A stretch of 40,898 nucleotides of DNA from Myxococcales bacterium (GCA_023248815.1 JAHFDV010000002.1:1-40898), one strand, 5' to 3'; numbered from the stretch's first letter, positions 8,967 through 34,689 are shown. The notes: generated by a model from the sequence alone, not told the origin. Translations and numbers: made by a program.

Positions 8967-8968
8967 AA

Positions 8969-18357: not shown

Positions 18358-18377
18358 CGACACACGATGGGCCCAGA

Positions 18378-18426: not shown

Positions 18427-18446
18427 AGCTATCTATCGCTGGTCAG

Positions 18447-18768: not shown

Positions 18769-18866
18769 GCGTCGCGTTCGCGAGCCTGCCGTCGTCGCTC
18801 ACTCGGAGCGTTCCAAGACGGCGGCAGGCTTGTGAGCATGACGCTTACGAGAAGGATGAAACGACC

Positions 18867-19828: not shown

Positions 19829-20646
19829 GAGCTTCGCCAGCACTACAAAGCGCCATCAGCAAACCTCTGGAATCGAAGGACATTCCGCCGAAAGACAGGG
19901 CGAGAGGCATCCGAATTGCGCCATCGGCCGCGGTTCAGTCGTACGATGACATCGTGCCTCGCAGCGGAGAGAAGCCGGGTCGAAAGGGTCGACTTCCTCT
20001 CGCGGAACTCGCAGATCGCGAGCTCGTCGCTCAAGCCGTTCCGATTGTGTGGCGGGCGATGCGGGAGCTTCAAGAACTCCGCTCTACCGAAGGCGCTTCG
20101 GACGCGGCGCTCGCGCATCTCGATGAGATGAGGATCGTGCTCGAAGCCGTGCGGCTCTCTTTAGGACCGAAGCTCGCCGAGCGCACCGTTGTTAGCGTGG
20201 CAGATCTGTTGCGCGCAAAATGGGCGAGGGATGCGAAGTCTTCTCTCACGAGCAACGGGTGGTCGTTCGTGCACGGCAGACTGCCCGAAGAGGACGCCGC
20301 TGCGAAGGTAGTCAAGCTGCTGCCACCAATCCCAGGCACTGCGGTGCTCTCGCAAGAGGAAGCGACGTCGCGTGCTGAAATCGCGGTGACGTTTCTGTCG
20401 GAGTTCGTGCCGCCCTCGGTGAGGCGTCAACCTGGATGGTTCGAGAGCGTCGTGGGCAAGACTGAGAAGGCCATGGTGTCGGCGAAGGAGCGATACTTCT
20501 CCGTTTCCTCTGAGGAGCAGACACGACTCGCTCTCAATGCGCTTGGCCTGAAAGCATCGAACTTCTTTCGAACCAAGAAAAAGAAAGCCAGCAAGCTCAC
20601 ACTCCTGAGTGTGAGCCCACCTGCGTCGAAGCGCTCGCGACGCTAA
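19825..20646 (+). CDS. Hypothetical protein with a Lys/Arg-rich C-terminus (cargo gene 3)
   Basis: The internal ATG of tracked ORF 19600-20646 overlaps the preceding stop. The product is 273 aa, from MRASPALQSAISKPLE... to ...FFRTKKKKASKLTLLSVSPPASKRSRR. Confidence 0.6.
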   Translation: MRASPALQSAISKPLESKDIPPKDRARGIRIAPSAAVQSYDDIVPRSGEKPGRKGRLPLAELADRELVAQAVPIVWRAMRELQELRSTEGASDAALAHLDEMRIVLEAVRLSLGPKLAERTVVSVADLLRAKWARDAKSSLTSNGWSFVHGRLPEEDAAAKVVKLLPPIPGTAVLSQEEATSRAEIAVTFLSEFVPPSVRRQPGWFESVVGKTEKAMVSAKERYFSVSSEEQTRLALNALGLKASNFFRTKKKKASKLTLLSVSPPASKRSRR

Positions 20647-20661
20647 CGGCCTCATCGCATC

Positions 20662-20865
20662 GTGCTCATCATGAGCACCGAACAACGCACCCTCGCGCTG
20701 AAGCTTGCAGCCACTGCAGACGTCGATCCGCGGACGGCGTTGAAGGCACTCACGCGTGGCATCGCGTCGGTGCGCGGCCGCGCGGCTGAAAAGCTCAGCG
20801 AAGCGGCGCACTCCCTAGGCGCCCGATTTCCTTCCGACCCGCCCCCTCCGGGCGTCGCCGCCTAA
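20662..20865 (+). CDS. Small hypothetical protein (cargo gene 4)
   Basis: The 67-aa ORF (possibly starting at 20671, MSTEQR) has GC-rich third positions and is followed by a hairpin and T-run. Confidence 0.45.
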   Translation: MLIMSTEQRTLALKLAATADVDPRTALKALTRGIASVRGRAAEKLSEAAHSLGARFPSDPPPPGVAA

Positions 20866-20886
20866 CCATCAACCCGAGCGCGCACG

Positions 20887-20941
20887 CCGTTCGCACAAAA
20901 AAGCGAACGGCCCGGGGGTCGCATCCCGAGCCGCTCTTTTT
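20887..20941 (+). terminator. Terminator-like hairpins ending the left-end module
   Basis: A perfect 8-bp stem, CCGTTCGC (20887-20894) with GCGAACGG (20903-20910), is followed by a second imperfect GC hairpin and TTTTT (20937-20941). Confidence 0.5.
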
Positions 20942-20952
20942 GGAGTCCAGCA

Positions 20953-21288
20953 ATGAAGAATCGTAATCAGAAAGACGAAGAACGCAAGCCGAACGAAACG
21001 GGGAATGTGCATGCAATCGCGTCCGTGCTCCCGTTCACAATCTCGGCAGCCAACTGCGAGCTGCTAACGGGCCGGCCGTGGACGGCGACGCTCGCATGGG
21101 CGAAGCGGAAGGGACTTCCGATTGTCTCCACGCGGCCTCCGGCCATCCTCGCGCGGCCGTTGCTGAAGCTCCTCGAGGAGGAGGCGCAAGCGGGAGAGCT
21201 CGAGAGCGTGAACGAAGAGACGTCGACCTCGAGCGCGGACGACGTACTTGCGGCCGTCGGCCTTCGTCGCATGGGCGGTGCGAAGTGA
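20953..21288 (+). CDS. Putative DNA-binding protein (HTH-like); first gene of the long rightward operon
   Basis: The 111-aa product has an HTH-like segment, ISAANCELLTGRPWTATLAWAKRKGLPIV, and an acidic C-terminal part. Confidence 0.5.
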   Translation: MKNRNQKDEERKPNETGNVHAIASVLPFTISAANCELLTGRPWTATLAWAKRKGLPIVSTRPPAILARPLLKLLEEEAQAGELESVNEETSTSSADDVLAAVGLRRMGGAK

Positions 21289-21497
21289 GTCGTAACCGCG
21301 AAGGCGCCGTGGACAACTCAGAACAACTTCGCATTGCTGCGCGCTCCGTCGCCAACGTGCGGCTGCTTCACGAGGTCTCGTGCGGCGTAAGCGGCTGTCT
21401 CGCGCCAGCGCGTCAGTTTCGCGTGCCGCCGTCGCAGCCCTATGCCGTCGTGCCCGTCTGCTCGAAGCACAAGATTCACTGGGCGGAGGTGGCATGA
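21285..21497 (+). CDS. Small Cys/His protein (possible zinc-binding)
   Basis: The GTG start overlaps the preceding stop (GTGA). The 70-aa product reads ...VSCGVSGCLAPARQF...VVPVCSKHKIHW. Confidence 0.45.
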   Translation: MSRNREGAVDNSEQLRIAARSVANVRLLHEVSCGVSGCLAPARQFRVPPSQPYAVVPVCSKHKIHWAEVA

Positions 21498-22345
21498 GCT
21501 GGCTTCGCATCGACGATCGCGCGCACTCGCACATCAAGTTCCTTCGAGCCGGTCACGAGGCGACCGGCTTCTGGATGATGTGCGGCTCCTACGCGGCAGA
21601 TCACGAGCTAAACGGCGAGGTTCCTCGGGAGTTTGCCGAGCGTTTGGCGGGATCTCCTCAAGCTCTTCGCCGCCTTTCGTCAAAACTTATCGCCGTTGGT
21701 CTCTGGGAAGTTTCGGAGACCGGTTGGCGCATGCACGACTACCTCGCGTGGAACCCGTCACGCGAAGAACTCGAACGAAAACGAGTGGATGCTTCGGCAA
21801 AAGGGCGAAAGGGAGCGGGCGCACGATGGGGATCTCGTGATGCCACGGGCATAGCTGCGGGCAATGCCACGGGCATAGCGGCAAGCAATGCGGCCTGTAT
21901 GCCCCCGTCCCGTCCCGACCCGACCAGTCCCAGAGAGAGAGAAAAAGATCTCCCTTCGGGAGATGTAAAAACCCCCACCGCCAAGAGCGCGTCTTCGGCG
22001 AAGCGGGGCGAGCGCCTTCCCGAAAACTGGCAGGCATCGCCGGAGCTCCTCGCGAAGCTTCGTTCGAAGTTCAAGGTCGATGCGGCTGCAGCCGTTGACC
22101 GCTTCAAGAATCACTGGCTCGCTGCCAGCGGCCGCAACGCGACAAAGCTCGATTGGAATCGAGCGTTCGAAAACTGGGTCGACGAGGACACGAGCCGCGG
22201 GAAGCTCCCGGTGTGGATTGCGCCGCGCCCGCGCCTCGCAAAGGTCGCGGACGTTGGCTTCGCGCTCGACGGCGAAAAGCTCATCGACGCTCGAGCGCAA
22301 ATCACCGAACTCGAAAACAAGATCTCCGCTGGGGTGCTTCGATGA
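21494..22345 (+). CDS. Putative phage replication organizer/initiator (lambda O / DnaD-like role)
   Basis: The ATGA-coupled start gives an N-terminus MSWLRIDDRAHSHIKFLRAGHEATGFWMMCGSYAA. The C-terminus LPENWQASPELLAKL...VDRFKNHWLAASGRNATKLDWNRAFENWV resembles C-terminal motifs of phage replication proteins. It lies directly upstream of the primase and helicase genes. Confidence 0.5.
   Translation: MSWLRIDDRAHSHIKFLRAGHEATGFWMMCGSYAADHELNGEVPREFAERLAGSPQALRRLSSKLIAVGLWEVSETGWRMHDYLAWNPSREELERKRVDASAKGRKGAGARWGSRDATGIAAGNATGIAASNAACMPPSRPDPTSPREREKDLPSGDVKTPTAKSASSAKRGERLPENWQASPELLAKLRSKFKVDAAAAVDRFKNHWLAASGRNATKLDWNRAFENWVDEDTSRGKLPVWIAPRPRLAKVADVGFALDGEKLIDARAQITELENKISAGVLR
21841..21888 (+). 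repeat. Tandem 24-bp repeat inside the replication-organizer gene (candidate iterons)
   Basis: TGCCACGGGCATAGCTGCGGGCAA (21841-21864) is followed by TGCCACGGGCATAGCGGCAAGCAA (21865-21888). Together they encode ATGIAAGNATGIAASN. Confidence 0.7.
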
Positions 22346-23418
22346 GCGCCTCGACGAACCGACCCGACTACGCACGCGAGATTCGCTATGCGCTCACCGA
22401 CGCTCGAGCGCTTTGCGACGCCCTCGGGCTCCTCGCTCGCGGCAAGTGGTCGAAGCAGCCGCGGGGCGTAATCGTCGCGTGTCCCTGGCACGATGACCGC
22501 TCGCCGTCCTGCTCCGTCCGCGTCGCAAAGGACGGCACGATCTCGGCAAAGTGCTTCTCGTGCGACCAATCGGGCGACGCGCTCGCGCTCATCGCGCAGG
22601 TGCGAGGCATCTCGCTCACGCGTGAGTTTCCCGCCGTCCTCCTCGAGGCCGCCGAGCTTGCAGGCCTTCATGCGATCGCGCACGAACTTCGAACGGGCGC
22701 CCCGTCCGCCGAAGCTCGCCAGCCGGCGGCGCTTCCGCCAGTGTCCACCGAACCCGAGCGGGACTATCCCGCGCGCAGCGAAGTGCTTGCGCTCTGGGAG
22801 CGCGCAGGGGACGTGAGCGACGACCACGAGGCCGCGGCATGGCTGCGCTCTCGCGGCATGGATCGCTTCGCGGTGGCCGGCGCTGACGTCGTTCGGTGCC
22901 TTCCACCGAAGGCTCGTCTTCCGCGCTGGGCGAGCTACCGCGGCCGTTCGTGGGTGGAGACGGGGCATCGACTCGTCTTCGCGATGCGCGACGCCAGCGG
23001 GTCGCTGAGGAGCCTTCGCGCGTGTCGCATCGTCGAGGGCGACTCGCCGAAACGTCTACCGCCGGGCGGTCACCGGGCGAGCGGCCTCGTGCTCGCATGC
23101 GGTCTGGCGACGGCGATGCTTGCGGGGACGTACCGCCCTCGCCTCGTGGTGATCTCGGAGGGCGAGCCCGACTTCCTGACGTGGGCCTCGCGTCCCGGCA
23201 TGGCCCCGACGGCGCGGATCGGAATCGTTTCCGGCTCGTGGTCCGAATCCTTCGCCGCGCGCTTCCCGTCCGCCGCCTACGGCGCTCCCTGCACGGTCGT
23301 GATCCGAACCGACCGCGACGAAGCAGGAACCCGATACGCGAAAGAGATTGCTCCGTCGCTCCAGCAACGCGGCTGCCTCGTTCGTTGGACTCCTCGTGAG
23401 GTGCGCCATGCTGCATGA
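22342..23418 (+). CDS. DNA primase (CHC2 zinc finger plus TOPRIM)
   Basis: CPWHDDRSPSCSV...KCFSCDQSGDALALI is a CHC2 zinc finger. The TOPRIM-like motifs are VVISEGEPDFLT and VIRTDRDEAG. The start is ATGA-coupled. Confidence 0.8.
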   Translation: MSASTNRPDYAREIRYALTDARALCDALGLLARGKWSKQPRGVIVACPWHDDRSPSCSVRVAKDGTISAKCFSCDQSGDALALIAQVRGISLTREFPAVLLEAAELAGLHAIAHELRTGAPSAEARQPAALPPVSTEPERDYPARSEVLALWERAGDVSDDHEAAAWLRSRGMDRFAVAGADVVRCLPPKARLPRWASYRGRSWVETGHRLVFAMRDASGSLRSLRACRIVEGDSPKRLPPGGHRASGLVLACGLATAMLAGTYRPRLVVISEGEPDFLTWASRPGMAPTARIGIVSGSWSESFAARFPSAAYGAPCTVVIRTDRDEAGTRYAKEIAPSLQQRGCLVRWTPREVRHAA

Positions 23419-24931
23419 GACACGCGATGACAACGCGCTCCACGTCGCAGGAGAGCTCCCGATTGATCCGACCGCGGACGCCGTGCCGATGCCGCCGGAC
23501 ACGTCCGCGCGCCAAGCGACCCTGCAGCTCGTCACGGCGGACACGGACGCGCGCCGGCTCGCGACGCCGATCGATCACATCGCCGAAGCTCAGCTGCTTG
23601 GAATGATCCTTTGGGCGGGCAAGCACTCGCCCGGGGCCGTGACGATGGGGATGGTTCGAGACCTCGTCGATGCCGGGAAATTCGCGCTATCCGCGCATCA
23701 GACGATAGCTACCGCGATCGTTCAGCTTGAACAGTCGGGCGCCGGCGTCGATCCGGTGTCAGTTCATTCCGAGCTCGTACGCACGTCGATTGCTCGAACC
23801 GTGGGCGGAATCGACTACCTCGAGAAGCTCACGAGCTCCGTGGGCGTTCCAACCGAGAAGAGCCTGCGCGAGCACGCAGCGTCGATCCGTCAGATGTGGG
23901 ATCGACGCGGGCTGATGAAGCTCGGTCGGTTCTTCGAGGAGCGCGCGAAGAAGGCGAGCTCGAGCGCGGAGGCACTCACGGATGCGCGCCGTGCGTTCGA
24001 GGAGTACGCAACCAAAGTCGGCGCGACATCGACGGGTACCGTCTCGCTTGCGACATGCACCGCGACGGTGATCCGTCAGGTGCTCGAGGAGCGCAAAGAC
24101 GGCTTCCGAACGGGACTTGAAACCCTCGACGATCTGACGGGCGGTTTCTTTCCGGGAGAGTTCTCGATCCTCGGAGCGCGCACTTCGGTCGGCAAGAGCG
24201 CGTTCGCGCTCCAATGCGGCATAGGCACCGTCGATCACAATGAGAACGCAGCAGTGCTTTTCATCACCCTCGAGATGACTGGCATGGCGTTCTCTCGCCG
24301 CGCTCTGGCCGCCATGGCTGGCGTTCAAACGAACAAGCTGCGGCGCGGCCTGATCAATCAAAGCGAGTACTCGCGGCTGATGGCGGCGGCTCAGCAGATC
24401 GAAACGAAAGCCATCACGTTCGCCGAATCCCAAAGCCAGACGGTCGCGAGCATCGAGGCGCTCGCGAGAAGCCACGCGGAGGCTCTGGCGCGTAGCGGGA
24501 AGCGTCTCGCGCTCGTCGTGATCGATCACGTCGGGCTCGTGCAACCCGACGCCGCTTCGCAAAAGAAGAATCGCGAGCAGCAGGTAGCCGAGACGTCGCG
24601 CGCGTGCGTGCGCATGGCGGCCGAGCTGAACTGCGCCGTGCTCGGACTAGTGCAGATCAAGCGCGAAGCCGAGGGCCAGAACGGCAGCAAGATGCCGCGC
24701 CTTCACCATCTTCGCGAGAGCGGCGCGCTCGAGCAGGACGCACACAATGTGCTGATCCTTCACCGCGCACGCGACGCGAGTGGCGCGCGCTTCGAAGATG
24801 AGCCCGCCGTGCTCGCGCTCGCGAAGGCGCGCGACGACGAACCCGCGATCGTACGTCTTGGTTTCGAGTCAGCGAAGCAGCGCTTCTTCGACCTCCAATA
24901 CGAAGAACGATCGGTGGAGGTCGCGCCATGA
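23408..24931 (+). CDS. DnaB-family replicative helicase
   Basis: The N-terminal DnaB-like domain reads IAEAQLLGMIL...GIDYLEKL. The motifs are LDDLTGGFFPGEFSILGARTSVGKSAFAL (Walker A), LVVIDHVGL (Walker B) and QIKREAE. The start MLHETR at 23408 overlaps the primase stop by 11 nt. Confidence 0.85.
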   Translation: MLHETRDDNALHVAGELPIDPTADAVPMPPDTSARQATLQLVTADTDARRLATPIDHIAEAQLLGMILWAGKHSPGAVTMGMVRDLVDAGKFALSAHQTIATAIVQLEQSGAGVDPVSVHSELVRTSIARTVGGIDYLEKLTSSVGVPTEKSLREHAASIRQMWDRRGLMKLGRFFEERAKKASSSAEALTDARRAFEEYATKVGATSTGTVSLATCTATVIRQVLEERKDGFRTGLETLDDLTGGFFPGEFSILGARTSVGKSAFALQCGIGTVDHNENAAVLFITLEMTGMAFSRRALAAMAGVQTNKLRRGLINQSEYSRLMAAAQQIETKAITFAESQSQTVASIEALARSHAEALARSGKRLALVVIDHVGLVQPDAASQKKNREQQVAETSRACVRMAAELNCAVLGLVQIKREAEGQNGSKMPRLHHLRESGALEQDAHNVLILHRARDASGARFEDEPAVLALAKARDDEPAIVRLGFESAKQRFFDLQYEERSVEVAP

Positions 24932-25332
24932 AGCGCCACGGAAGACCCGTCGCGTCGTCGCGACGTCCAGCAACGGGCAACACTCCGAGCGAGCTTCGTC
25001 CCCTCGTACCGCTCGCAGTGAAAGCCCTAAGCGGCTCGCCGTTCGCCTCTCCCGCGAAATGGCCTCACGCTGTAGTGATCCTGCGCGCCGACGAGAGGAG
25101 CGTGTCGCATCGGAGCGCATTCGCCGCATGGCTCTCTGCCAACGATCTCGGAGCGCTCGCTAACGAGGCCCGCAGGCGCGTCGTGAGGCCCGGCGAGGCT
25201 CTCGTCTACGTCGATGTCGACACCTCCGAATTTGCGATCGCCCGCTTTTACGTCCTCGACGTCTTCGCCGCAGCGAGCGCGGAGATCGCACGATCTGAAA
25301 CCACGAACCACGAAAAGGAAAATCAGCCATGA
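24928..25332 (+). CDS. Hypothetical protein
   Basis: The 134-aa ORF is ATGA-coupled at both ends. Confidence 0.55.
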   Translation: MKRHGRPVASSRRPATGNTPSELRPLVPLAVKALSGSPFASPAKWPHAVVILRADERSVSHRSAFAAWLSANDLGALANEARRRVVRPGEALVYVDVDTSEFAIARFYVLDVFAAASAEIARSETTNHEKENQP

Positions 25333-26384
25333 ATAAGCAAATCGAAGAACTCACGATGAAAGCTGCGCAATCGAAAGCGGCGGAGAGCAAAGCGCACGAC
25401 GAACTAAGTCGCTGCGAGCGCGCTTACGTCGCCGACCGATCGGACGCTGCCTACAAGGCTCTTCAGAAGGCACGTCAAGACGTTGAGCGCGCATCGATGC
25501 ACGCAGAAGCCGATGCCACGACCCTCGCTGACGCGACCGAGGCCGCTGCGAACGACGAGAGAGCCCGAAAGATCTCGGAGCTTCGAGCGCGACGTGACGT
25601 GCGGCTGCTCGACGACACGATGCGAGTCGCGATCATCGATTCGACGTACCTCTTGAATCAGGTGCTGCGCACGCTCGATGAGCGCGGCAACGCGCTCAAG
25701 CTCGCGGACGCCGAACTAGGGCAGCTCGTGGCTCTCGAGAAGGAGTCACCGCGGGATCGAAAGGAAGACGCCTATAGCGAACTCCGCGATCTTATCGGCG
25801 CGTGCCAGTTCTTTGCGGAGCGCGGCCCAACGCACCTCGCTGCGAACCCTTCGCCTTCGAAGCCTGCATTGGAGCGCGTGCGCCGGCACCTCCCGGAGCT
25901 CGCGTCGTCGTATGACGACCGACGCGCCAGAGAAGCTCAAGAGCGCGAGCGGGTAGCGCTCGAGTTCGACGCAGCAGATCGCGCCCACAGAGGCGTGTGC
26001 ACCATTCACAATCGCGCTCCCTGGTCGACATTCGTTCGCGTCGATGGCGGTAGGACGATCGAGGGGGAGTTCATCGGACCTCGTCGCCTCGAGATCGATG
26101 GTGGTGAGGTCATCCGTCTTCGGGTCGGTCACTTTGCCGGAGACCGGGTCACGAATGCAGACGTCGAGCGCTTCCACTTGGACGAGATACTCACCGTCAC
26201 GCTCGAGCTTGGCGAGGACGCCTTCGCGCGGGGGAGCGTGGTGAGCACATTCACTGAGCGGCAGATCAACTGGAAGGAGAAGACGAGCGAGCGCGTGAAG
26301 GAGTTTGAGGATCGCGAGCGCCAACGACTATTCAACGCGACCCGAGCTCCGGGCCAAACCAGCCGAGACGGAGCGGAGGCCTGA
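25329..26384 (+). CDS. Hypothetical coiled-coil protein
   Basis: The 351-aa product has a long helical, charged N-terminal half and a beta-rich-looking C-terminal half. I recognise no motif. Confidence 0.6.
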   Translation: MNKQIEELTMKAAQSKAAESKAHDELSRCERAYVADRSDAAYKALQKARQDVERASMHAEADATTLADATEAAANDERARKISELRARRDVRLLDDTMRVAIIDSTYLLNQVLRTLDERGNALKLADAELGQLVALEKESPRDRKEDAYSELRDLIGACQFFAERGPTHLAANPSPSKPALERVRRHLPELASSYDDRRAREAQERERVALEFDAADRAHRGVCTIHNRAPWSTFVRVDGGRTIEGEFIGPRRLEIDGGEVIRLRVGHFAGDRVTNADVERFHLDEILTVTLELGEDAFARGSVVSTFTERQINWKEKTSERVKEFEDRERQRLFNATRAPGQTSRDGAEA

Positions 26385-26386
26385 CG

Positions 26387-26959
26387 ATGGCGAATCCGAT
26401 GAAGACGGCAATCTACCTGCCGAAGCTGCTTGCTGCCCTCGACGTGGCTACCCCTGAAGAAGCGGTCGGCGCGATCGAAGGGTTGAAGGCGCAGGCCGAG
26501 CACGTCGACGCGCTAACTCTCGAGCTTGCGAAGCTGAAAAGGTTCGCCGGTGAGAAAGACGTGAGCGAGATCCTGCGAGTGGGCGAGGAAGCGGGCAAGA
26601 TCACGCCCGCGAACAAGGCCTCGTTCCTGGAGATCTGCGGAGCGACCGTCGCGAAAATGGATGAGCGCGGCCGCGTCGTCGCTTCGAAGAGCAAGACGGG
26701 CCACGTCGACGTGCGTGGCGTGCCGCTCGAGACGCTTCCCGATGTCGCACGGCTAAGCACGCTCATAGCCAGCCTTCCCGTCATCGCACCACGAGAGCCG
26801 ACGAGGACGCGCGCGCCGGGCGAGAGCGGTTCACGTCTCAGCGCACGGCAAAAGGCCACCGTGAAGCGGCTTGGCGTCACCGAGGAGGATTACATCGCGC
26901 AATACAACGCGATCGTTGCAGGCCCGGAAGACCTCACCCCGATCGACACCGATCGGTAA
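26387..26959 (+). CDS. Phage scaffold-like protein (Mu gpI/Z-type motifs)
   Basis: LDVATPEEAVGAIEGLKAQ, the GKITPANKASFLE motif, and the C-terminal LSARQKATVKRLGVTEEDYIAQY are all patterns common in phage protease/scaffold proteins. The family is recalled, not searched. Confidence 0.55.
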   Translation: MANPMKTAIYLPKLLAALDVATPEEAVGAIEGLKAQAEHVDALTLELAKLKRFAGEKDVSEILRVGEEAGKITPANKASFLEICGATVAKMDERGRVVASKSKTGHVDVRGVPLETLPDVARLSTLIASLPVIAPREPTRTRAPGESGSRLSARQKATVKRLGVTEEDYIAQYNAIVAGPEDLTPIDTDR

Positions 26960-26987
26960 GCGCAACCAAGGGAGCGAAGGAGCACGC

Positions 26988-28835
26988 ATGGCAGACATCA
27001 ACTGGATCTTCGAGATGGTGGACAAGGTGAGCAAGCCGCTCGACGACGTCCAGAAGAAACTCGACGCGATGCCGAAGAGCGCCGACGCCGTCGAGAAGGC
27101 GATCGCGAAGGTAGAGCGCGCGATGATGCTCAAGAAGATCCAAGGGACGTCGGACCCTCTCCAGAAGACACTGCTCACGCTGAAGGCGCAGCAGAAGGCG
27201 CTGAAGGAGAACGGCGGCGTCCTCGGTTGGTTCAAGGACAAGCTCGGCGGCAATGGCGTAGCAGCGGGCGTCGCAGGCGCGGGCGTGCTGCTCTTTGCGA
27301 GCGCTGCGGGGTCGCTCATGCACAGCTTGCTCGGAGCTGGGGTGGGGATGGCGAAACTCGCCTTCGAGTCGTCGGAGGGCAAGCGCGCCATGATGGGCGC
27401 GCTCGAGGTGTTCGAAGGCAGCGGCACCGATGCCGCATTCGACACGCTTCAACAGATGGGCATCAAGGCCGGCGTCTCCGCTGACGCAACCGTCGAAGCT
27501 TTCACGCGCATGCGCACGGCCGGCTTCAAGGCGAAGGAAGCACAGGACATCATCGCCGCATCCTTCGACCTCTCGGCCAAGTTTGGCGGTGGAGAGAAGG
27601 GGCTCGAACACGCGACCAAGTTCCAAGACCTGATGGCGAAGGTTGACGTGCTCTCGAAGTCGGGAGCGAAAGACATGAAGGCCGCCGTTCTCGGCGCCGG
27701 CGTCAACATCGACGCTTTGCAGGCGTCGGTCGCGCAAAGAATGAAGGTGCCGGTCGATCAAGCGAAGACGTTGCTCGCTGAAGGAAAAGTCGGCGAGGCG
27801 ACCATGAAGAACGCGCTCATCGATGCTGTGCAAGACTCGCTCGACAATGGTGGAGCACTCGGTAGCAATGCTCTCAAGTTCGCGAAGGGCAGCATCGTCG
27901 CGCAGGTCACGAGTCTGAAGGGGGTCTTCGACAACATTTTCGAAGACGTCAATCTCGGCCCATTCGCCAGCGTGCTCGGAAGGATCACCGACGAGCTTTC
28001 TCGCAAAGGCGGGCCCGCCGACAAACTCAAGGCCATGGCGGGTGGCGCTTTCGAAATGGTCGGAGCTTTCACTTCCGGAATCGACATCGCCGGGGTCATC
28101 GGAACCGTTGTCGACTGGATCGGCAAAGGCGGCGACCTCATCGGGGAACTAGTTTCGGGCTTCAACGAAGTCTTCAACTCCGTCATGATCGACACGATCG
28201 ATCAGATGTCCGGCTCTACGCAGGGTATGGGGATGTCGTTCGAAGACGTGAAGATGGTTATCCACGCGACCGGGCAAGTGCTCGGGACGATGGTGACGAT
28301 TGGCTACGCCGTCGGCAAGGCCGTCATCGGCGTCGTCGAGACGATCGCCGAAGCGGTGATGGGGCTCGGCATGGCGCTCGGTTGGATTCTCGACAAGATG
28401 GGACTCATCGGCGAGGAAGCCCCGAAGTTTGGCGGTGCGTTCAAGGATGGCCTCGACCAGGGCACGAACGCTATCAAGGGCGGCAAGTTCGCGGACACCG
28501 TTTACGACGAGTACGCCGTTCAGCCTGGCGCGAAAATGGAAGTCGCTTCCCCGTCGAAGGTGACGACGCGCATCGGTGGTCACATTGCCGAAGGCTACAA
28601 CGTCGGCTTCGACGACAAGATCGGCACGGGCGACGTGCAAAGCTTCCTCTCGAGCGACTCGGTCGCTTTCGATTCATCCGGCTACTCCGATAGCGGGAGC
28701 GGCATCCGCGATGTCAACGTCACGTTCGGAGACATCTACGTCAACGGCGACAGCGCAAGCGCGATCGCGAACGACCTCCGCGCGCAAGTTCGCGTCGAGG
28801 TGATTGGGCTCTTCGAAGAGATGGGACAAGGGTAA
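26988..28835 (+). CDS. Tape-measure-like protein
   Basis: The ATG is preceded by GGAGCGAAGGAG. The 615-aa product is largely helical with Gly/Ala-rich hydrophobic stretches (GVAAGVAGAGVLLFASAAG; IAGVIGTVVDWIG; GLGMALGWIL). It also has a TMP-core-like segment, LQQMGIKAGVSADATVEAFTRMRTAGFKAKEAQDII. Confidence 0.5.
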   Translation: MADINWIFEMVDKVSKPLDDVQKKLDAMPKSADAVEKAIAKVERAMMLKKIQGTSDPLQKTLLTLKAQQKALKENGGVLGWFKDKLGGNGVAAGVAGAGVLLFASAAGSLMHSLLGAGVGMAKLAFESSEGKRAMMGALEVFEGSGTDAAFDTLQQMGIKAGVSADATVEAFTRMRTAGFKAKEAQDIIAASFDLSAKFGGGEKGLEHATKFQDLMAKVDVLSKSGAKDMKAAVLGAGVNIDALQASVAQRMKVPVDQAKTLLAEGKVGEATMKNALIDAVQDSLDNGGALGSNALKFAKGSIVAQVTSLKGVFDNIFEDVNLGPFASVLGRITDELSRKGGPADKLKAMAGGAFEMVGAFTSGIDIAGVIGTVVDWIGKGGDLIGELVSGFNEVFNSVMIDTIDQMSGSTQGMGMSFEDVKMVIHATGQVLGTMVTIGYAVGKAVIGVVETIAEAVMGLGMALGWILDKMGLIGEEAPKFGGAFKDGLDQGTNAIKGGKFADTVYDEYAVQPGAKMEVASPSKVTTRIGGHIAEGYNVGFDDKIGTGDVQSFLSSDSVAFDSSGYSDSGSGIRDVNVTFGDIYVNGDSASAIANDLRAQVRVEVIGLFEEMGQG

Positions 28836-29251
28836 TGATGAGTGCAGAGGACACCAACGCTCCTACGACGCTGACCTCGGACGAGCTCGATGCGGTGGTG
28901 CGATACCTATCCAGCCTCGGCACGCCGGCGCCTTGCCCTGTCTGCAGCGCGAACGCGTGGTTCGTGTTGAGAGAGCTCGTGTGCCAGCCGATGGTGAAGC
29001 CCAACTCAACGCTTCTCCTGGATTGGTGCGTTCCGTTCGTCACCCTGACCTGCAACGCTTGCTCGTTCGCGAGGCAGTTCGCATGGCAAACGCTGCGCGA
29101 GCGTGTCTTCGGATCATCGCTCACCCATACCCCCCCGCCAAAATTACAGCGGAAGCGCAAAATGGCCGACGGCGGCCGCCTTCGGCTCAAAACGCATTCT
29201 GAACGAAACTTTGCATATGCGAACCGTCATCCAGTGGAGGTGAAACCGTGA
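28835..29251 (+). CDS. Small protein with two CxxC pairs (zinc-ribbon-like)
   Basis: The start overlaps the stop as TAATG. The CxxC pairs are CPVCSANAW... and ...LTCNACSF. The C-terminus is basic. Confidence 0.5.
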   Translation: MMSAEDTNAPTTLTSDELDAVVRYLSSLGTPAPCPVCSANAWFVLRELVCQPMVKPNSTLLLDWCVPFVTLTCNACSFARQFAWQTLRERVFGSSLTHTPPPKLQRKRKMADGGRLRLKTHSERNFAYANRHPVEVKP

Positions 29252-29688
29252 AACTGACGCCCGAAATTCTCGAAGAGCTCTTGAGGCTCCGCGCATCCGG
29301 CAAAACGCAAAACGATCTGCAGAAGCACGTCCTCAAAAAGCACGGCATCAAGGTGAACCAGTCGTCGCTCTCTCGCTGCCTCGCGAAGCATCGTGGCGAG
29401 CGCGCCGAAATTTCGCGCGCCGTGGTCCAAGCATATGCGGAGAAGTCGATCCCGGCAGATCTCGAAGCGATGGATCGCGTGCAGGAGAAAAACCTGCAAC
29501 TCCTCGACGAAGCGCAGGAGGCCGCGCGGAAGGTTCCATCGCTGGCGAATGTCGACAAGGTAGTCAAGCTCACCGCGGCCGTCGCGCGCGCAGACGAGAC
29601 GAAACGTAAGGCACTCGGTCTCGATGACCCGACCGAGTCGATCAACTACCAGGGCCTTGCAGATCTCGTGGGCCTCGCACTCGAATGA
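29248..29688 (+). CDS. HTH plus coiled-coil protein with small-terminase-like architecture (speculative)
   Basis: The GTG start is GTGA-coupled. The N-terminal HTH is LTPEILEELLRLRASGKTQNDLQKHVLKKHGIKVNQSSLSRCL, followed by a helical region. Confidence 0.45.
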   Translation: MKLTPEILEELLRLRASGKTQNDLQKHVLKKHGIKVNQSSLSRCLAKHRGERAEISRAVVQAYAEKSIPADLEAMDRVQEKNLQLLDEAQEAARKVPSLANVDKVVKLTAAVARADETKRKALGLDDPTESINYQGLADLVGLALE

Positions 29689-29930
29689 GAGCGAACACGC
29701 TTCCCGCGATCGCCGCGCTGCTTCTGCATAAGCCGCATCCCGCCGAGGATATTTCGGACGAGCTCGCCGTGCTCGAGAACCTGCACGCGCTGTTCTTCGC
29801 GCTTGAGGTGCGGACGCTCGACGAGGCGGTCGGCATGGCCGCCGGCCTCGTGGCGAAGGGCAAGCTCTACGACACCGAGCACGAACTCTTCACCGCTCTA
29901 TTCAAGAACCAACAACCGAAAGAAGAATGA
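29685..29930 (+). CDS. Small protein carrying the scaffold-like LxVxTxxEAxGxxxGL motif
   Basis: ALEVRTLDEAVGMAAGLVAKGKLYDTEHE (nt 29799-29852 and a little beyond) is paralogous to motifs in the 26387 and 29927 genes. The ORF is ATGA-coupled. Confidence 0.5.
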   Translation: MRANTLPAIAALLLHKPHPAEDISDELAVLENLHALFFALEVRTLDEAVGMAAGLVAKGKLYDTEHELFTALFKNQQPKEE

Positions 29931-30484
29931 GGCACCAAATGACCCGACCAATGATGACCAGCCAATTCCGATCAGGCTCGCTCGACGAACAGCTCGAGCG
30001 AATCAGGAACCGAAGTAAGGCCGCTGCTTCCGACAACGGCTCGGGCGCGAAGCCTGAGGAGCTGCAGAAACTCTTCGACACTCTCGGTGTGAAAACGATC
30101 GCCGAGGCGATCGGCGCCGCGGCGGGACTCGTCGTGAAGGGCGCCAAGTACGACGAGGAGCACGCGGACGAGGAGGATCCGCCGACGGGTGAACAGGCGG
30201 CGTCCCACCGTCCCCATGCTCACGCGAGCAGCTCGTCGACAGGTGCTCGGCTCACCCTTCGAGAGCGTGAGATCGCTGCTCGTCACGGCGTGTCGGCCGA
30301 AGACTTCCTGGCGCAAAAGAGAGTATTCACGGGGGAGCCGCCTGTGGCGTCTTCACCGCAGCGTGCGAGCGGGTCGCCGACGAAGATCACCCAACGCGGG
30401 CGCCAGCTTGCCGCGCTGAGAGGAGTAAGCGAGGAAGAGTGGCTTGCCGAACGGCAGAAGGTCGTGACGGGTCACTTCGGGTGA
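29927..30484 (+). CDS. Scaffold-motif protein (paralogous motifs)
   Basis: It carries TLGVKTIAEAIGAAAGLVVKGAKYDEEHA (nt 30080-30133 and a little beyond). It also has two copies of the xTxRxxxxAxxxGVSxEDF/WLAxxQ motif (LTLREREIAARHGVSAEDFLAQKR and ITQRGRQLAALRGVSEEEWLAERQ). Confidence 0.55.
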   Translation: MRHQMTRPMMTSQFRSGSLDEQLERIRNRSKAAASDNGSGAKPEELQKLFDTLGVKTIAEAIGAAAGLVVKGAKYDEEHADEEDPPTGEQAASHRPHAHASSSSTGARLTLREREIAARHGVSAEDFLAQKRVFTGEPPVASSPQRASGSPTKITQRGRQLAALRGVSEEEWLAERQKVVTGHFG

Positions 30485-30831
30485 CGGAGCTCGGCCCCGT
30501 CCTCACCGTCGCCGAGCTCGCGACGAAAGCAGGCTGGAACTATCAACGGATGTGGCGGCACCTCCGCGCGCTCAACGATGAACGCGGAGGTACGCTGCTT
30601 CGCAACACGTCGCGCTCGAAGAAGCGAGCTCGCTGGACGGCGAGCCTCGCCGCGCTTCGCTCGGCGTCTCCCGAGTGGTTTGGCGCGGGCGGAGCGCTTA
30701 CTGACCAGGAAAGCTATGAAGATCTCGACGCGCGCGTGCGCCGACTCGAGCACACGCTCGAAGCGCTGATTCGGAAGGACTTAAGGGAACGGGCGTCAGC
30801 GCCCCTTCAAGTAGCGCGCCGCGCGAGCTAA
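30481..30831 (+). CDS. HTH DNA-binding protein (excisionase/MerR-like N-terminus)
   Basis: The GTG start is GTGA-coupled. The sequence is VTELGPVLTVAELATKAGWNYQRMWRHLRAL followed by a coiled-coil tail. Confidence 0.5.
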   Translation: MTELGPVLTVAELATKAGWNYQRMWRHLRALNDERGGTLLRNTSRSKKRARWTASLAALRSASPEWFGAGGALTDQESYEDLDARVRRLEHTLEALIRKDLRERASAPLQVARRAS

Positions 30832-30878
30832 GCCGCAAGCGAAGCGAAACTTCGCACTCGTGCGCTACCAATCAACGC

Positions 30879-31067
30879 ATGAGGGTCTGGATAGGTGCGA
30901 GCGGAAGCAAGCCGCCGCGAATCTTCGCGTCAGAAAGCTCGGCGAAGAAGGCCGGTCAGTTCGAGGCTTACTTTAATAGCTACCCCGCCGAACTCACGCG
31001 TGACGTCTTTGAGCAGCTCTGCGAAGCAATGCGAGAGCCCGGCGACGGGCACCAGGAAGAACCTTAG
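30879..31067 (+). CDS. Small hypothetical protein
   Basis: This 62-aa ORF is the last gene of the rightward block. Its stop overlaps the stop of the convergent minus-strand ORF. Confidence 0.4.
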   Translation: MRVWIGASGSKPPRIFASESSAKKAGQFEAYFNSYPAELTRDVFEQLCEAMREPGDGHQEEP

Positions 31068-31333
31068 GAAGGACGGCTGTGATCAGCGCGCTCGAGCTGC
31101 TCTTCGGCTGCGCGCATTGTGCGGAGCGCGAGCACGATCGCTTCTCGTGCGGCGGAGGTCCTGCCGTGGTCGTACTCGACGAGTAGAGTGCTCAGTTCGT
31201 TGGAGGCAGAGGCGAGGGTGTCGCGAAGGGATTGCATATGATGCGCATCGACCATTCCTCGCGCTGGGTTGCTTCCCGAAGCACGAGGAGTCCGCCCCGT
31301 CGCCAAACTGCGCGACGGGGCTTCCTCACTCAT
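31064..31333 (-). CDS. Hypothetical protein
   Basis: The MSEEAPSRS... start at 31333 lies inside tracked ORF 31064-31381. It begins 5 nt after the stop of the small upstream ORF. Confidence 0.4.
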   Translation of the reverse strand: MSEEAPSRSLATGRTPRASGSNPARGMVDAHHMQSLRDTLASASNELSTLLVEYDHGRTSAAREAIVLALRTMRAAEEQLERADHSRPS

Positions 31334-31337
31334 CACC

Positions 31338-31466
31338 TCACGCGCCGAATGGCCACGCGCGGTATCCGTAGTCCGCAGCAAACATCAGCTTTCCAGTGCG
31401 GTAGTGGCGATAAACCGTACAAAAACCACGACCTGCCTTGGAACGCTTTTTATTTTTGCGTTTCAT
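31338..31466 (-). CDS. Very small basic protein (42 aa), hypothetical
   Basis: The minus-strand translation is MKRKNKKRSKAGRGFCTVYRHYRTGKLMFAADYGYRAWPFGA*. It is below the ORF-track size cutoff. An AAAGGG sequence lies upstream. Its third-position GC is lower than that of its neighbours. Confidence 0.3.
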   Translation of the reverse strand: MKRKNKKRSKAGRGFCTVYRHYRTGKLMFAADYGYRAWPFGA

Positions 31467-31597
31467 GGGGGTACACCCTTTCCGCTGCTCGAGAGCTGAG
31501 CGCTTGACTAAGGGGGTCCGACGGATGCACGCTATCTGTCCCTGCAGAGTGCGCGTCGGCTTACGTCAATACGTTGGCCCGGCAGCATTAGGCCAAT

Positions 31598-31640
31598 CGA
31601 ACGTCACAGGCGCCAACCCGTGACGTTCGAAACTTTTTGT
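31598..31640 (+). terminator. Perfect 10-bp inverted repeat followed by a T-run (terminator or operator)
   Basis: CGAACGTCAC (31598-31607), a 12-nt loop, then GTGACGTTCG (31620-31629), followed by AAACTTTTTGT. TTACGTCA direct repeats flank it at 31561-31568 and 31648-31655. Confidence 0.45.
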
Positions 31641-31652
31641 CTTGGGATTACG

Positions 31653-32270
31653 TCACTCGTACCTCCCAAGAAGTTTCAGTCTCTTCAGATGCGAGCGCAT
31701 CATGCTCCCGCTTACCTCGAAGCGGTCTGCCAGGGCTTGGACGGTGTTCTCGCCAGACGCGAGAATGGCCGCACGAGGCGCCAGAAAATTCCCGGCGAAA
31801 GCCCACGCCTGCCATTCCGGGTCTCGGTACGGCGGGATTTCGTCCCTTCGCATCTTGCGATTCAGGAGGGTCTCAGCGTTCGGGAGACTCATGCGTCTCC
31901 TAAGTATAGGTACGTGCAAAATGGCGTGACCAAGCTCGTGCGCGAGCGTCGCACGAGCGCGATTTGCAGCGCGCCCCCCATCGAGCAGCTCGTGCCAAAG
32001 CGACTGCTGAATGAGGATGTGCGTCTCGTCCTTCTCGGTCGCGATGGGCACGGTAGCGGCCAGCCGGTCTTCCAACTCGACCGCGCTCGCCGGATAGACG
32101 TGAATACCGTACGCGGGAAGCTGCTCGACCAATGAGACGAGGTCAATCGCGCAAGACGCCTCTGCGCCTCCGTCGTAAAATAGGCCGCGAGTGCTGGCGC
32201 CGATGGCCTCAATGCCGGCCGTCGGAACGGGCGGCATCATAGGAACGCGCTCGGTGCCAAAGTCACTCAT
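31653..32270 (-). CDS. ImmA/IrrE-family zinc metallopeptidase
   Basis: The HEXXH motif lies in ATLAHELGHAILH. The MSDFG start at 32270 overlaps the stop of the upstream XRE gene by 8 nt. This is the typical XRE-ImmA pair of mobile elements. Confidence 0.8.
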   Translation of the reverse strand: MSDFGTERVPMMPPVPTAGIEAIGASTRGLFYDGGAEASCAIDLVSLVEQLPAYGIHVYPASAVELEDRLAATVPIATEKDETHILIQQSLWHELLDGGRAANRARATLAHELGHAILHVPILRRRMSLPNAETLLNRKMRRDEIPPYRDPEWQAWAFAGNFLAPRAAILASGENTVQALADRFEVSGSMMRSHLKRLKLLGRYE

Positions 32271-32646
32271 CGTCGTCCTCACTGTTCAGAATAGAGAGTA
32301 GGGCGTCGAGTTCGGCGGGCCGCAGGTCACGGCGGTCTATGCGACGCGCAAGTGCGAGGCCCAAGTCTAAATATGCGCGCGGCGCGTCCGTAAGCTCAAG
32401 CTGCACGCCTCTGAGTGGCGCCATTTCGCGTTCGATCTCGTCCTCAGAGAAGCCCGGGATGATCTCGGCGAGCTGCTTCCAGCGCTCGCGTTTCAGGGAT
32501 GTGCGCACACCGCGTTCAACTTCGGCGATCAAGACATGCGAGACGCTCATTGCATCGGCCACTTCGCGAAGACTCATTCCAGCCGCGATGCGTCGTTTGC
32601 GCAGGTATCTGCCGAAAACGCTGGGTTCCGGGGTCTTGTTAACCAT
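32263..32646 (-). CDS. XRE-family HTH repressor (cI/ImmR-like)
   Basis: The HTH is FGRYLRKRRIAAGMSLREVADAMSVSHVLIAEVERG. The start is uncertain: MVNKTPE at 32646 is preferred, but the ORF stays open to the GTG at 32739. Confidence 0.8.
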   Translation of the reverse strand: MVNKTPEPSVFGRYLRKRRIAAGMSLREVADAMSVSHVLIAEVERGVRTSLKRERWKQLAEIIPGFSEDEIEREMAPLRGVQLELTDAPRAYLDLGLALARRIDRRDLRPAELDALLSILNSEDDDE

Positions 32647-32787
32647 CTGGTTCACAGGAGAACACATCACCTTGTTATCGTCCAAAAATTTGGCCATTTT
32701 TGAAATATGAAAATGAATTTTGGTAGGACCATTCAGCACTTGAACGTTTGAGCAGTGACTTGGACGAAGGTTTAGTTACTTTCGACC

Positions 32788-32841
32788 TGGACAACGTCGT
32801 AGCTCGTTGTATATACATTGGGCGACTGTAGTACGTCGTAC
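32788..32841 (+). promoter_or_regulatory. Candidate rightward promoter with overlapping palindromic operators in the AT-rich divergent region
   Basis: TGGACA (32788-32793), a 16-nt spacer, then TATATA (32810-32815). ACAACG-N8-CGTTGT (32791-32810) sits between them. Also present are the perfect palindrome TGTATATACA (32808-32817), GTACG-T-CGTAC (32831-32841), and the direct 8-mer ACGTCGTA at 32793-32800 and 32833-32840. Confidence 0.35.
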
Positions 32842-32858
32842 ATACGAAAGGCGCCGTC

Positions 32859-33038
32859 GTGCATACTGATTCGATGCGAGAGAAGGTGTTCAACATCCGC
32901 TTCAGCGAGGAGGAGTGGGCACGAATCCAAGCACTCGCGGCTCATCACGAGTTGCCCGCTGCTCAGATTCTTCGACTGCTCATCAAGCGCGAACACGCGG
33001 CCATCTTCCCTGCGCCGGCAAAGAAGTCGAAGCGTTGA
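32859..33038 (+). CDS. Ribbon-helix-helix (CopG/Arc/MetJ-like) small protein upstream of int; candidate Cro or excision factor
   Basis: The GTG at 32859 is preceded by GAAAGG 8 nt upstream. The translation is VHTDSMREKVFNIRFSEEEWARIQALAAHHELPAAQILRLLIKREHAAIFPAPAKKSKR*. A beta-strand followed by two helices is the typical RHH pattern. At 59 aa it falls just below the track cutoff. Confidence 0.6.
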   Translation: MHTDSMREKVFNIRFSEEEWARIQALAAHHELPAAQILRLLIKREHAAIFPAPAKKSKR

Positions 33039-33138
33039 AAATGAAAGCTCCCGCGCTGCGCTAACAGCCGGGAGCGTGGTCCGACCTAGGAAAGAGATCG
33101 AACAATGCAAACCCTAACTCTCGCACTCGAGGTGCGCC

Positions 33139-34689
33139 ATGGCTAAGCCAGCCGTCGGCGAGCTCATCCCCACCGCGACCGGGTACTCCGCGCGCATCCG
33201 CGTTGCCGGCGACCGCGTCACGCTTCCGCTCGTGCACTTCACGCGCGAGCAGCCCGACGAAGCACGGGAGCGCATGACAGCGCTCGCAGGAATCGCGCAG
33301 CGCCTCTTTCGTGCGAAGCGCGCAGACGACGCCGCCAAGCTCGTGAAGATCGGTGCAGATGCTCGGCCCGGCGCGCCGTGGGCGGCTGTGCTCTCAGCCG
33401 TCGACGTCATCTGTCGGGGAGAGGCGGAAGCGCTTTCTCCCGATGGCGTGACGTTCGAGGGATTCGCGAAGCGTTGGACCGAAGGTGAGCTCGCGCGACG
33501 CTACCCCGATCACGTTTTGAAGAAGCGCTCCGTCGAGGCCGATCGCCGCTTTCTTCGCCTCTACGTACTCCCCACGATCGGGCACTTGCCGATCGAGAGC
33601 GTCACGCTCGAGCATGCGGACGCCGTCCTCGAGGCCATTCCTACGCGCCTCGGAGCGGCATCGCGCCGCCACGTCGCCCAGGTGCTGCGCCGCGTACTCG
33701 CGCTCGCGGTCTACCCTGGTCGCTTGCTCAACACGAACCCCATCCCGGCGCGCTGGCTGCCTTCAGTGAAGGTTTCGCGACGCTTCACGCTTCTCTACCC
33801 GTCCGAAGATCGGGCGCTCCTCGCATGCCCGAAGGTGCCACTGTGGCGCCGGCTCTACTTCGGCATTCTCTCGAGGGAGGGACTTCGCCGCGACGAGCTC
33901 GCTTCGCTTCGCTGGCGACACATCGATCTCGAGCGAGGGATGCTCTTCCTCGACCGGAACAAGACGGACCAGACGCGTGGATGGGTACTCGAGCCGAGTG
34001 TGGTCGCTGCGCTCAAAGTCTGGAAGCGCATCTCTCGGCCGAAGGCAACGGCGGACCATCACATCTTCGGGGAGGGCGACGGAAGGGTGTACACGAACGA
34101 CCTCTCGGATCACCTACGCGCGGGCCTCCGAACGGCGGGTGTCACTCGAGAAGATCTGTTCGTCGAGAACGACGAGGTCCGCCGCGCGCTGCGAGTGCAT
34201 GACCTACGCGCAACGTTCGTCACGAGCTCCCTCGCGAACGGGAAAACGGAAACGTGGGTCTCCGATCGAACGGGCCACACCACTTCGAAGATGATCAATC
34301 ACTACCGCCGCGCCGCTCGCCAATGGTCCGAGATCAATCTCGGGACGCTGTCGCCGCTCGTGACGGCCATCCCTGAGATCGCCACTGAACACGAGCGCGA
34401 TTGCCCACCGATTGCCCATTCAGGAAATGGGGGCGGTGGTGGGGGTGGGCTCGCAACACCCGAAAAAACTAGAGGAGAGAGAGGGATTCGAACCCTCGGT
34501 GAGCTTGCACCCACACATGATTTCCAATCATGCGCCTTCGACCACTCGGCCACCTCCCCAACAGAGCCTCGCTCGTACCATAGCGGCCGCCATCGTGAAA
34601 GGCAGGTCTTGCGGAGAGGGCTGGAAAGCGCTTCTCATGGGGCCCCATGCTGGCGATTCCCCTCCTCATCCTTTCGAACATCTTCATGA
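33139..34689 (+). CDS. int: Tyrosine recombinase (phage integrase); the 3' end reads through the att core and tRNA-Ser on the opposite strand
   Basis: The catalytic signature is present: R in SREGLRRDELASLRW, HDLRATF (HxxR), and GHTTSKMINHY (H...Y). The catalytic domain is complete by about nt 34330. The ORF stays open through the tRNA to 34689. Confidence 0.9.
   Translation: MAKPAVGELIPTATGYSARIRVAGDRVTLPLVHFTREQPDEARERMTALAGIAQRLFRAKRADDAAKLVKIGADARPGAPWAAVLSAVDVICRGEAEALSPDGVTFEGFAKRWTEGELARRYPDHVLKKRSVEADRRFLRLYVLPTIGHLPIESVTLEHADAVLEAIPTRLGAASRRHVAQVLRRVLALAVYPGRLLNTNPIPARWLPSVKVSRRFTLLYPSEDRALLACPKVPLWRRLYFGILSREGLRRDELASLRWRHIDLERGMLFLDRNKTDQTRGWVLEPSVVAALKVWKRISRPKATADHHIFGEGDGRVYTNDLSDHLRAGLRTAGVTREDLFVENDEVRRALRVHDLRATFVTSSLANGKTETWVSDRTGHTTSKMINHYRRAARQWSEINLGTLSPLVTAIPEIATEHERDCPPIAHSGNGGGGGGGLATPEKTRGERGIRTLGELAPTHDFQSCAFDHSATSPTEPRSYHSGRHRERQVLRRGLESASHGAPCWRFPSSSFRTSS
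34473..34559 (-). tRNA. tRNA-Ser (anticodon GGA), 87 nt, CCA not encoded
   Basis: The minus-strand sequence is GGGGAGG-TG-GCC-GAGTGGTCGAA-GGC-G-CATGA-TTGGAAA-TCATG-TGTGGGTGCAAGCTCACC-GAGGG-TTCGAAT-CCCTC-TCTCTCC-T. It folds as a cloverleaf with the long variable arm typical of type II tRNAs, and the anticodon loop is TT-GGA-AA. Confidence 0.85.

Follow-up and report, generated by a model that had tools for sequence, protein, structure and literature searches.

What happens to an integrase gene that carries, within its own reading frame, the site at which its element recombines? The question is raised by a stretch of 40,898 nt from a Myxococcales bacterium (GCA_023248815.1 JAHFDV010000002.1:1-40898; hereafter the window, meaning the whole stretch analysed, with coordinates counted from its first letter), in which a tyrosine integrase gene, int (33139..34689, plus strand, as in the list of open reading frames, ORFs), runs antisense into a gene for tRNA-Ser(GGA). 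Here, I show that int crosses the attachment core, that its 3' portion lies at the opposite junction of the element, that this portion encodes a conserved protein domain, and that integrases related to it behave alike across a family found in Polyangia. The reading favoured here, to which a probability of roughly 0.85 may be given, is that of a ~16-kb phage-like element residing in tRNA-Ser(GGA), whose int contains its own phage attachment site (attP) and has its C-terminus swapped upon integration, the two isoforms of the protein probably having roles similar to those described for the Myxococcus phage Mx8.

An element inserted in a tRNA gene

The boundaries of the element are set by an exact 16-bp repeat, CACACATGATTTCCAA, which occurs as the attL core (18486..18501) and the attR core (34512..34527), both without strand, and which is nested in an imperfect repeat of 57 bp (18445-18501 versus 34471-34527) corresponding to the 3' half of tRNA-Ser(GGA). 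The latter gene (34472..34559, minus strand), the sole tRNA gene found by ARAGORN in the window, is a hybrid: its 3' part (34472-34511) comes from the element and its 5' part (34528-34559) from the host, while the attR core spans its anticodon stem-loop and, at the same time, int codons 459-463. At the other end, the host arm of attL (18445..18485, minus strand; imperfect repeat) is what the host tRNA-Ser originally had as its 3' part, now displaced. With 18445-18501 placed next to 34528-34559, the bacterial site attB is recovered as a tRNA-Ser(GGA), with an acceptor stem slightly better than that of the hybrid, and both the rebuilt and the hybrid tRNA are called and folded as tRNA-Ser(GGA) by ARAGORN. 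Given the two cores, the displaced 3' part of the tRNA and the rebuilt attB, positions 18502..34511 (~16 kb, no strand, bounded by the two core copies) are therefore an integrated element, whose left boundary is attL and whose right end holds int.

One gene in two pieces

The initial annotation of this locus, made from the DNA itself, had proposed that the int frame reads the core as T-H-D-F-Q, and indeed codons 459-463 are ACACATGATTTCCAA at 34513-34527. Past the core, and again as proposed, the prophage gene goes on for 53 codons and a stop (34528..34689, plus strand), antisense through the 5' half of the tRNA and then through host DNA, until it terminates at 34687-34689; the resulting protein of 516 aa is made up of a lambda-Int-like body, the left half of attP and the 53 read-through codons. 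At the left junction, bases 18487-18501 are the same as 34513-34527 and stand in the same frame, which remains open for 88 codons past Q463, down to a TAG at 18766-18768. This detached 3' segment of int (18502..18768, plus strand, stop included) consists of a linker (18502-18597) and a conserved tail, matched by tblastn (18598-18765). When 33139-34527 is joined to 18502-18768, a protein of 551 aa (463 + 88) is obtained, and it carries exactly the tail that had been predicted.

Two other properties ascribed to the 88-codon segment hold for part of it. It was described as start-less, which is correct for the element-derived part, but at attL no stop interrupts the frame as far back as 18310, and from an ATG at 18367, within host DNA, a 133-aa ORF runs across attL into the tail. 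It was likewise described as rich in GC at third codon positions (GC3), which is true of the last ~53 codons, whose GC content at positions 1/2/3 (0.79/0.49/0.74) resembles that of the int body (0.70/0.49/0.77), but not of the 35 codons beside the core, which have no coding-type profile (GC3 0.46). Nor is the profile of the 53-codon prophage tail (0.53/0.70/0.60) of a coding type; a coding-like profile is a feature of the body and the tail domain, and is absent from the linker and the 53-codon prophage tail. The 133-aa ORF of the prophage state (18367-18768, plus strand) passes through the displaced tRNA fragment and the core before it reaches the conserved tail.

As to the nature of the protein, Int is a tyrosine recombinase by its catalytic domain and its conserved residues. 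Phage_integrase and Phage_int_M domains are recognised (PF00589 at E 2.7e-15, PF22022); R246, K275, H354, R357 and Y389 are invariant, and H380 nearly so, in the alignment of homologues (A1); the best structural matches are lambda Int, XerA and the Tn1549 Int. The start codon of int is backed by alignment, M1 being invariant among the homologues. The core sits 70 codons past the catalytic Tyr389.

The detached tail is a conserved domain

Which of the two ends of Int is conserved was established by searching the rebuilt 551-aa protein against 5.8 billion proteins. The answer is the 88-aa tail and not the 53-aa one: 17 homologues (523-599 aa, 41-51% identity) cover 98-100% of the rebuilt protein, to its last residues. 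In their alignment the body is conserved, a region around residues 420-495 is hypervariable, and the last ~50 residues (LDRALTAALEGATADRRWDVVAQLVKELEARRL..NV..L) are again strongly conserved, more so than any other part outside the catalytic domain, with nine invariant positions (L505, A508, L509, A512, V521, L524, R531, R532 and V539).

The tail alignment, run against 185,579 species genomes, matched 59 loci, of which almost every one bears the title Polyangiaceae, Labilithrix, Myxococcales/Polyangiales or uncultured delta proteobacterium metagenome-assembled genomes. Among 60 distinct tail DNAs, mean entropy at codon positions 1/2/3 is 0.63/0.63/1.46, no stop occurs, and invariant residues are spelled by up to six synonymous codons. 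Because variation is concentrated at third positions, stops are absent and many synonymous codons are used, the tail is, on the evidence of its codons, protein-coding and under purifying selection. In an exhaustive search of 1.84 billion cluster representatives, the tail profile retrieved 1945 tail proteins, 868 of them at E <= 1e-10. The best 150 of these 1945 matches are mostly ORFs of 57-150 aa with the tail at the C-terminus and N-termini unrelated to one another; several short tail ORFs contain tRNA-derived peptides (GFEP, GIRT, DSNP) at their N-terminal side, in varying frames. Short ORFs with unrelated N-termini and a common tail are what gene callers would yield at attL junctions, and the short tail proteins fit this expectation.

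In the AlphaFold2 model, the body (predicted local distance difference test score, pLDDT, ~90) starts with a three-stranded N-terminal sheet followed by the core-binding and catalytic domains; the linker (426-495) is predicted to be disordered (pLDDT ~30); and the tail is predicted to form a two-helix hairpin at 496-534 (helices 496-514 and 518-534, pLDDT ~90), after which comes a basic end. The top structural matches of the model are full-length lambda integrase chains (1z1b, 1z1g). The tail matches no Pfam family, even at E = 10. A profile search of the PDB yielded only a short similarity, with a single ankyrin repeat in human FEM1B (E 1e-4, with no stretch significant alone); covering window positions 18607-18714 (tail residues 499-534; AL..AA..G..DVV..L), it is to be taken as a lead only.

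Integration splits the gene across the family

The genomic context of the relatives differs with the presence of the tail: all 17 tail-bearing homologues lie on contigs of 17.4 kb or less, whereas 34 of the 102 tail-less relatives listed lie on contigs that range from 20 kb to 9.9 Mb (hypergeometric P = 2e-3). A case in point is P0005, a tail-bearing integrase of 566 aa encoded by a 13.8-kb element that was recovered in two independent samples, the two contigs being circular permutations of each other with 99.9% identity and terminal overlaps. This circle has no tRNA gene, and its int linker carries an antisense tRNA-Ser-like stretch; judged from these features, it is the attP state.

The chromosomal relatives provide the counterpart. 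P0004 (three loci) and P0009 (one locus), corresponding to L066-L069, each end antisense inside a tRNA-Ser(GGA) gene, with similar host neighbours (sulfatase, response regulator). The same tRNA-Ser(GGA) is crossed by relatives in two frames (GIRT...HDFQ versus EREGFEPS...HMISNHAPS), hence the peptide encoded by the core is incidental. Past the tRNA, the ends of these int genes differ in sequence and length, and other truncated relatives show a tRNA-antisense peptide followed by a short, non-conserved read-through.

Orphan tails are the other piece of the split gene: 56 of the 59 tail matches in Polyangia genomes have no integrase body upstream. A tRNA T-arm motif is present within 400 nt upstream in 19-23 tail loci, as against ~0.01-0.015 expected per locus; these counts come from two simple motif searches for tRNA fragments upstream of orphan tails, with a detection of ~35-40% each; ARAGORN is blind to such fragments. 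Pairing of orphan tails with int genes covered flanks of 10 kb. In L009 a strong match to the family int is found ~9.4 kb downstream, on the same strand and preceded by a homologue of the small ribbon-helix-helix (RHH) gene described below, which is the arrangement seen in the window; L008 and L039 have weak integrase matches downstream of the tail, and L044 has a partial body match at the end of the locus. At the level of gene arrangement, the splitting of int by integration is thereby shown to be general in the family.

Other configurations occur too. Some members have the opposite geometry (L025, 9300-9559; L033, 9838-10159), with a complete sense tRNA (Cys or Leu) directly upstream of the orphan tail. 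Some full-length int genes (P0023, P0032; compare the int linker of L003) encode LAKVAELADALDSGS, which I take to be the sense translation of the 5' half of a class II tRNA. At several loci (L024, L029, L036) the tail occurs twice within a few kb, and one protein of 276 aa (P0123) consists of two tails with an integrase fragment between them; such doubled tails suggest tandem or neighbouring insertions, or recombination between elements.

Candidate arm sites in the linker DNA

Two direct copies of GATTGCCCA (34399-34407 and 34410-34418, plus strand), 11 bp apart and overlapping int codons 421-427, lie ~100 bp left of the core and are candidate P-arm sites; an inverted copy (18597..18605, minus strand), 96 bp right of the core and within codons 495-498 (DGQS), is a candidate P'-arm site. 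In the whole window, four copies are observed versus 0.16 expected, and three of them flank the core; the fourth exact copy, at 3204-3212, is far outside the element and probably due to chance. Likewise, among the relatives, in the full-length gene of L003 the core is preceded by two direct copies of ATTGCCCCA; that of L004 has a related tandem repeat (shared GCCCCACG) and an inverted TCGCCCCA copy downstream; and several orphan tails have TGGGGCAA twice, with 11-bp spacing, read in two frames as G-Q-S-W-G-N. Since a DNA repeat is here read in different frames, the semi-conservation of the LPHxLPH and GQS peptides is a matter of DNA and not of protein. The linker DNA of int thus appears to be attP itself, with a pair of GATTGCCCA repeats followed by the core derived from the tRNA and, beyond it, a single inverted GATTGCCCA. 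The predicted three-stranded N-terminal sheet, the alignment with full-length lambda Int and the candidate arm repeats on both sides of the core may be signs of a lambda-type system.

Seven consecutive glycines (G431-G437, in SGNGGGGGGGL) are encoded by G-rich linker DNA at 34425-34451, to the right of the candidate P-arm sites and left of the segment derived from the tRNA; relatives differ at this glycine run.

Comparison with known systems

The proposed swap of the Int C-terminus on integration, modelled in the initial annotation on Mx8, is supported by the conserved tail, by the relatives ending in tRNA-Ser(GGA) and by the geometry of Mx8 int. In both systems a tyrosine integrase has the attP core in its reading frame, 3' of the catalytic Tyr (here codons 459-463 of 551), the tRNA target is read antisense by int, the C-terminal segment is replaced on integration, and a small gene lies directly upstream of int. 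In Mx8 int (533 aa), an antisense tRNA T-arm-like sequence is located at codon 417, ~63 codons past the catalytic Tyr. The two elements differ in size (~16 kb here, 49.5 kb in Mx8) and in target, which is tRNA-Ser(GGA) here and tRNA-Asp in Mx8.

Mx8 is absent from the tblastn matches of the 551-aa protein among 50,697 phage records, the best match being Virus Rctr16k, with 46.5% identity over the body only. Membership of the window's Int in the Mx8 Int sequence family was considered and rejected, for the alignable part is confined to residues 97-390 and the tail profile finds no match; a resemblance of the tails noticed by eye (ALERLAAAL...ADDRW) is likewise unsupported by profile comparison.

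The SSV-type archaeal integrases (SSV1, pTN3, pT26-2) also have attP inside the int gene, which is partitioned by integration, and also combine integrase gene, site and control of directionality in one compact module. However, the SSV split parts an N-terminal from a catalytic portion, and both fragments are considered inactive, whereas here the DNA-binding and catalytic body remains whole and only a C-terminal accessory domain is lost. The window's int was therefore not placed in this suicidal class: its split falls 70 codons past the Tyr, and it matches PF00589 and PF22022, not Phage_integr_3. With lambda integrase, the top structural match, the protein shares, in its model, the N-terminal sheet and the core-binding and catalytic domains, together with candidate arm repeats flanking the core; unlike here, the lambda attP lies outside int, the lambda protein is the same in phage and prophage, and lambda Int has neither a long disordered linker nor a separate C-terminal hairpin domain.

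The architecture is, in sum, the already known Mx8-type. According to a review, int of Mx8 harbours attP and acquires another 3' end on integration, which alters the specificity of the integrase without inactivating it. In Islander, the integrases of Mx8 and SSV are cited as known examples that extend across attP. A 2021 review (PMC8371274) regards self-disrupting recombinases as exclusive to archaea; because integration removes a C-terminal domain, Mx8 and the Polyangia family are partial counter-examples to this statement. Literature searches found no prior description of the Polyangia integrase family, which, with its own conserved detachable domain, is large and undescribed.

Two forms of Int and the state of the element

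In the mechanism proposed here, the int gene is tripartite. It specifies, first, a lambda-Int-like body, in which an N-terminus of arm-binding type is followed by a core-binding and a catalytic domain, the latter ending near Tyr389; second, a linker of ~75 residues (roughly 421-495), predicted to be disordered; and third, a tail predicted as a ~40-residue two-helix hairpin with a basic end. Crossover within the 16-bp core would carry the tail segment to attL, 16 kb away, and leave the body at attR. There the body reads on through the tRNA into 53 unrelated codons, and the prophage encodes a tail-less Int of 516 aa, which would be expressed from an RHH-int unit that is divergent from an XRE-type repressor gene. 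The excised circle would instead encode a tailed Int of 551 aa, its joined frame reading ...ACACATGATTTCCAAGCATACCC... By analogy with the IntP and IntX forms of Mx8, the tailed form would be the integration-proficient enzyme, while excision, which would in turn restore the full gene, would need no more than the tail-less form, probably aided by the RHH protein. The physical state of the element would then set the Int isoform and bias the direction of recombination.

Several points weigh against this reading. The presumed difference in function between the two Int forms, like the role of the tail, is borrowed from Mx8, though the tail is non-homologous to the Mx8 tail (hhalign probability 0.1) and, in the profile comparison, the bodies share 27% identity over residues 97-390 only. 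Excision of this element and production of either Int form are predictions from the DNA. The alignment input of the AlphaFold2 model was small (18 sequences). About half of the orphan tails have no upstream tRNA motif recognisable by the simple patterns used. Finally, in the chromosomal locus L049 body and tail are contiguous, showing that a chromosomal copy is not always split. In this locus (8446-10108 of a 1.7-Mb contig), a stop before 9641 breaks the frame of the tail between body and tail; L049 may mark the junction of tandem insertions, or else an element that entered by a different route.

Alternative explanations

The alternative that survives best, though an unlikely one, accepts the architecture and regards it as functionally neutral: the tail would serve stability, localisation or binding of a host factor, independently of directionality, or be dispensable, the two Int forms would be equal in recombination, and the overlap with attP would be compact packing. 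It finds support in the 516-aa form, whose catalytic and DNA-binding domains are complete. On the other hand, a domain of ~50 residues is under purifying selection in at least 1945 clusters, even when detached, which argues for a need of it at some stage, and only from the circle can it be expressed as a fusion with Int; in addition, the swap in Mx8 is reported, in review, to change the specificity and efficiency of the integrase.

It is much less probable that the tail belongs to a small gene of its own beside attP, its fusion to int in some contigs being a matter of read-through or an artefact of gene calling. Such a gene would account for the 57-150-aa proteins that make up most of the top 150 tail-profile matches, and the window itself offers a 133-aa ORF from the ATG at 18367 that ends in the tail. 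Yet the element-derived part upstream of the tail domain has no start codon, the N-termini of the short ORFs are mutually unrelated and in several cases contain tRNA-derived peptides in varying frames, and body and tail share one frame in every episomal or full-length copy, even though the linkers vary in sequence, length and tRNA target.

A constraint acting on DNA (attP arm sites) rather than on a protein domain, which might produce conservation 3' of the core, deserves slightly less credit still. The semi-conserved LPHxLPH and GQSWGN peptides do derive from a DNA repeat of 8-9 bp read in different frames; this explanation, however, holds for the linker only, for codons of the tail domain are constrained at positions 1 and 2 and free at position 3, and the invariant Arg, Gly, Ala and Leu use 4-6 different codons each. 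For the tail domain it is refuted by codon-position entropy.

The least probable of all is a chance ORF at 18502-18768, with Int ending functionally near residue 400-460, a high-GC coincidence that the initial annotation had itself named as the competing view: a genome of 60-65% GC with many long spurious ORFs, and 35 codons beside the core devoid of a coding GC profile, might invite it, but the tail is conserved in 17 full-length homologues and 59 genome loci, varies at third positions through synonymous codons with no stops, and has a confident predicted fold, so that the alignment of homologues and the codon-position signature refute it.

Neighbouring genes of the element

The small RHH-like gene just upstream of int (32859..33038, plus strand) was recognised from weak NikA/ParD-like matches below the cut-off. 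Its homologues stand at the same place upstream of int in L009 and L069; tblastn also matches L001 and L056, and BLASTP weakly matches an upstream ORF of L066. It had been thought to occupy the place of Mx8 uoi; so it does in position, but the protein gives no BLASTP alignment with Mx8 Uoi, and homology to that excisionase was consequently rejected. The gene is a candidate directionality factor or regulator. Divergent from the RHH-int pair lies an XRE-type helix-turn-helix repressor-like gene (32263..32739, minus strand; HTH_31 and HTH_3).

Elsewhere within the element, Pfam and PHROG matches identify a replication initiator (21380-22345), a primase (22153-23418), a DnaB-type helicase (23348-24931) and a protein with a C-terminus like that of Mu-like prophage I or a prohead protease-scaffold (26387-26959). 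Among the genes of the ~16-kb element no terminase or tail gene was recognised, and the element may represent a satellite, or else a phage of very small size. Its relatives (L003, L004/L005, L066, L001) are contigs of 13.8-17 kb, some of them circular, with a prohead protease (Peptidase_S78 or Mu-like_Pro).

Significance

Among the practical consequences, integrase genes in these genomes are systematically mis-called, the prophage form receiving a false C-terminus and the orphan tail being filed as a small hypothetical protein; conversely, an orphan tail and its paired integrase body give the exact boundaries of an element, which is of use for mapping genomic islands. The integrases of Mx8 and Mx9 are standard integration tools in myxobacteria, and new integration vectors for these bacteria might be drawn from the present family. 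It also offers a tractable system for learning how a removable domain controls the direction of recombination.

A further proposal, put forward tentatively and with the odds somewhat against it, is that the detachable tail is a built-in state sensor of a large family of mobile elements in Polyangia, licensing or assembling the integrative complex, with directionality hard-wired in the topology of the gene. An ankyrin-repeat-like hairpin would be tethered by a disordered linker whose DNA is attP, with its arm sites, core and arm site; as the tail is fused to Int only in the circular element, directionality would not depend solely on a separate factor. If this were true, thousands of intact orphan tails would be stored integrase halves, selected for the next excision.

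Mx8 has so far been essentially the sole well-studied example, among bacteria, of an integrase gene that is rewritten by the reaction its product catalyses. The tail clusters found here, at least 1945 in number, their many tRNA targets and different reading frames, and their independently conserved domain suggest that the Mx8-type design is common in Polyangia.

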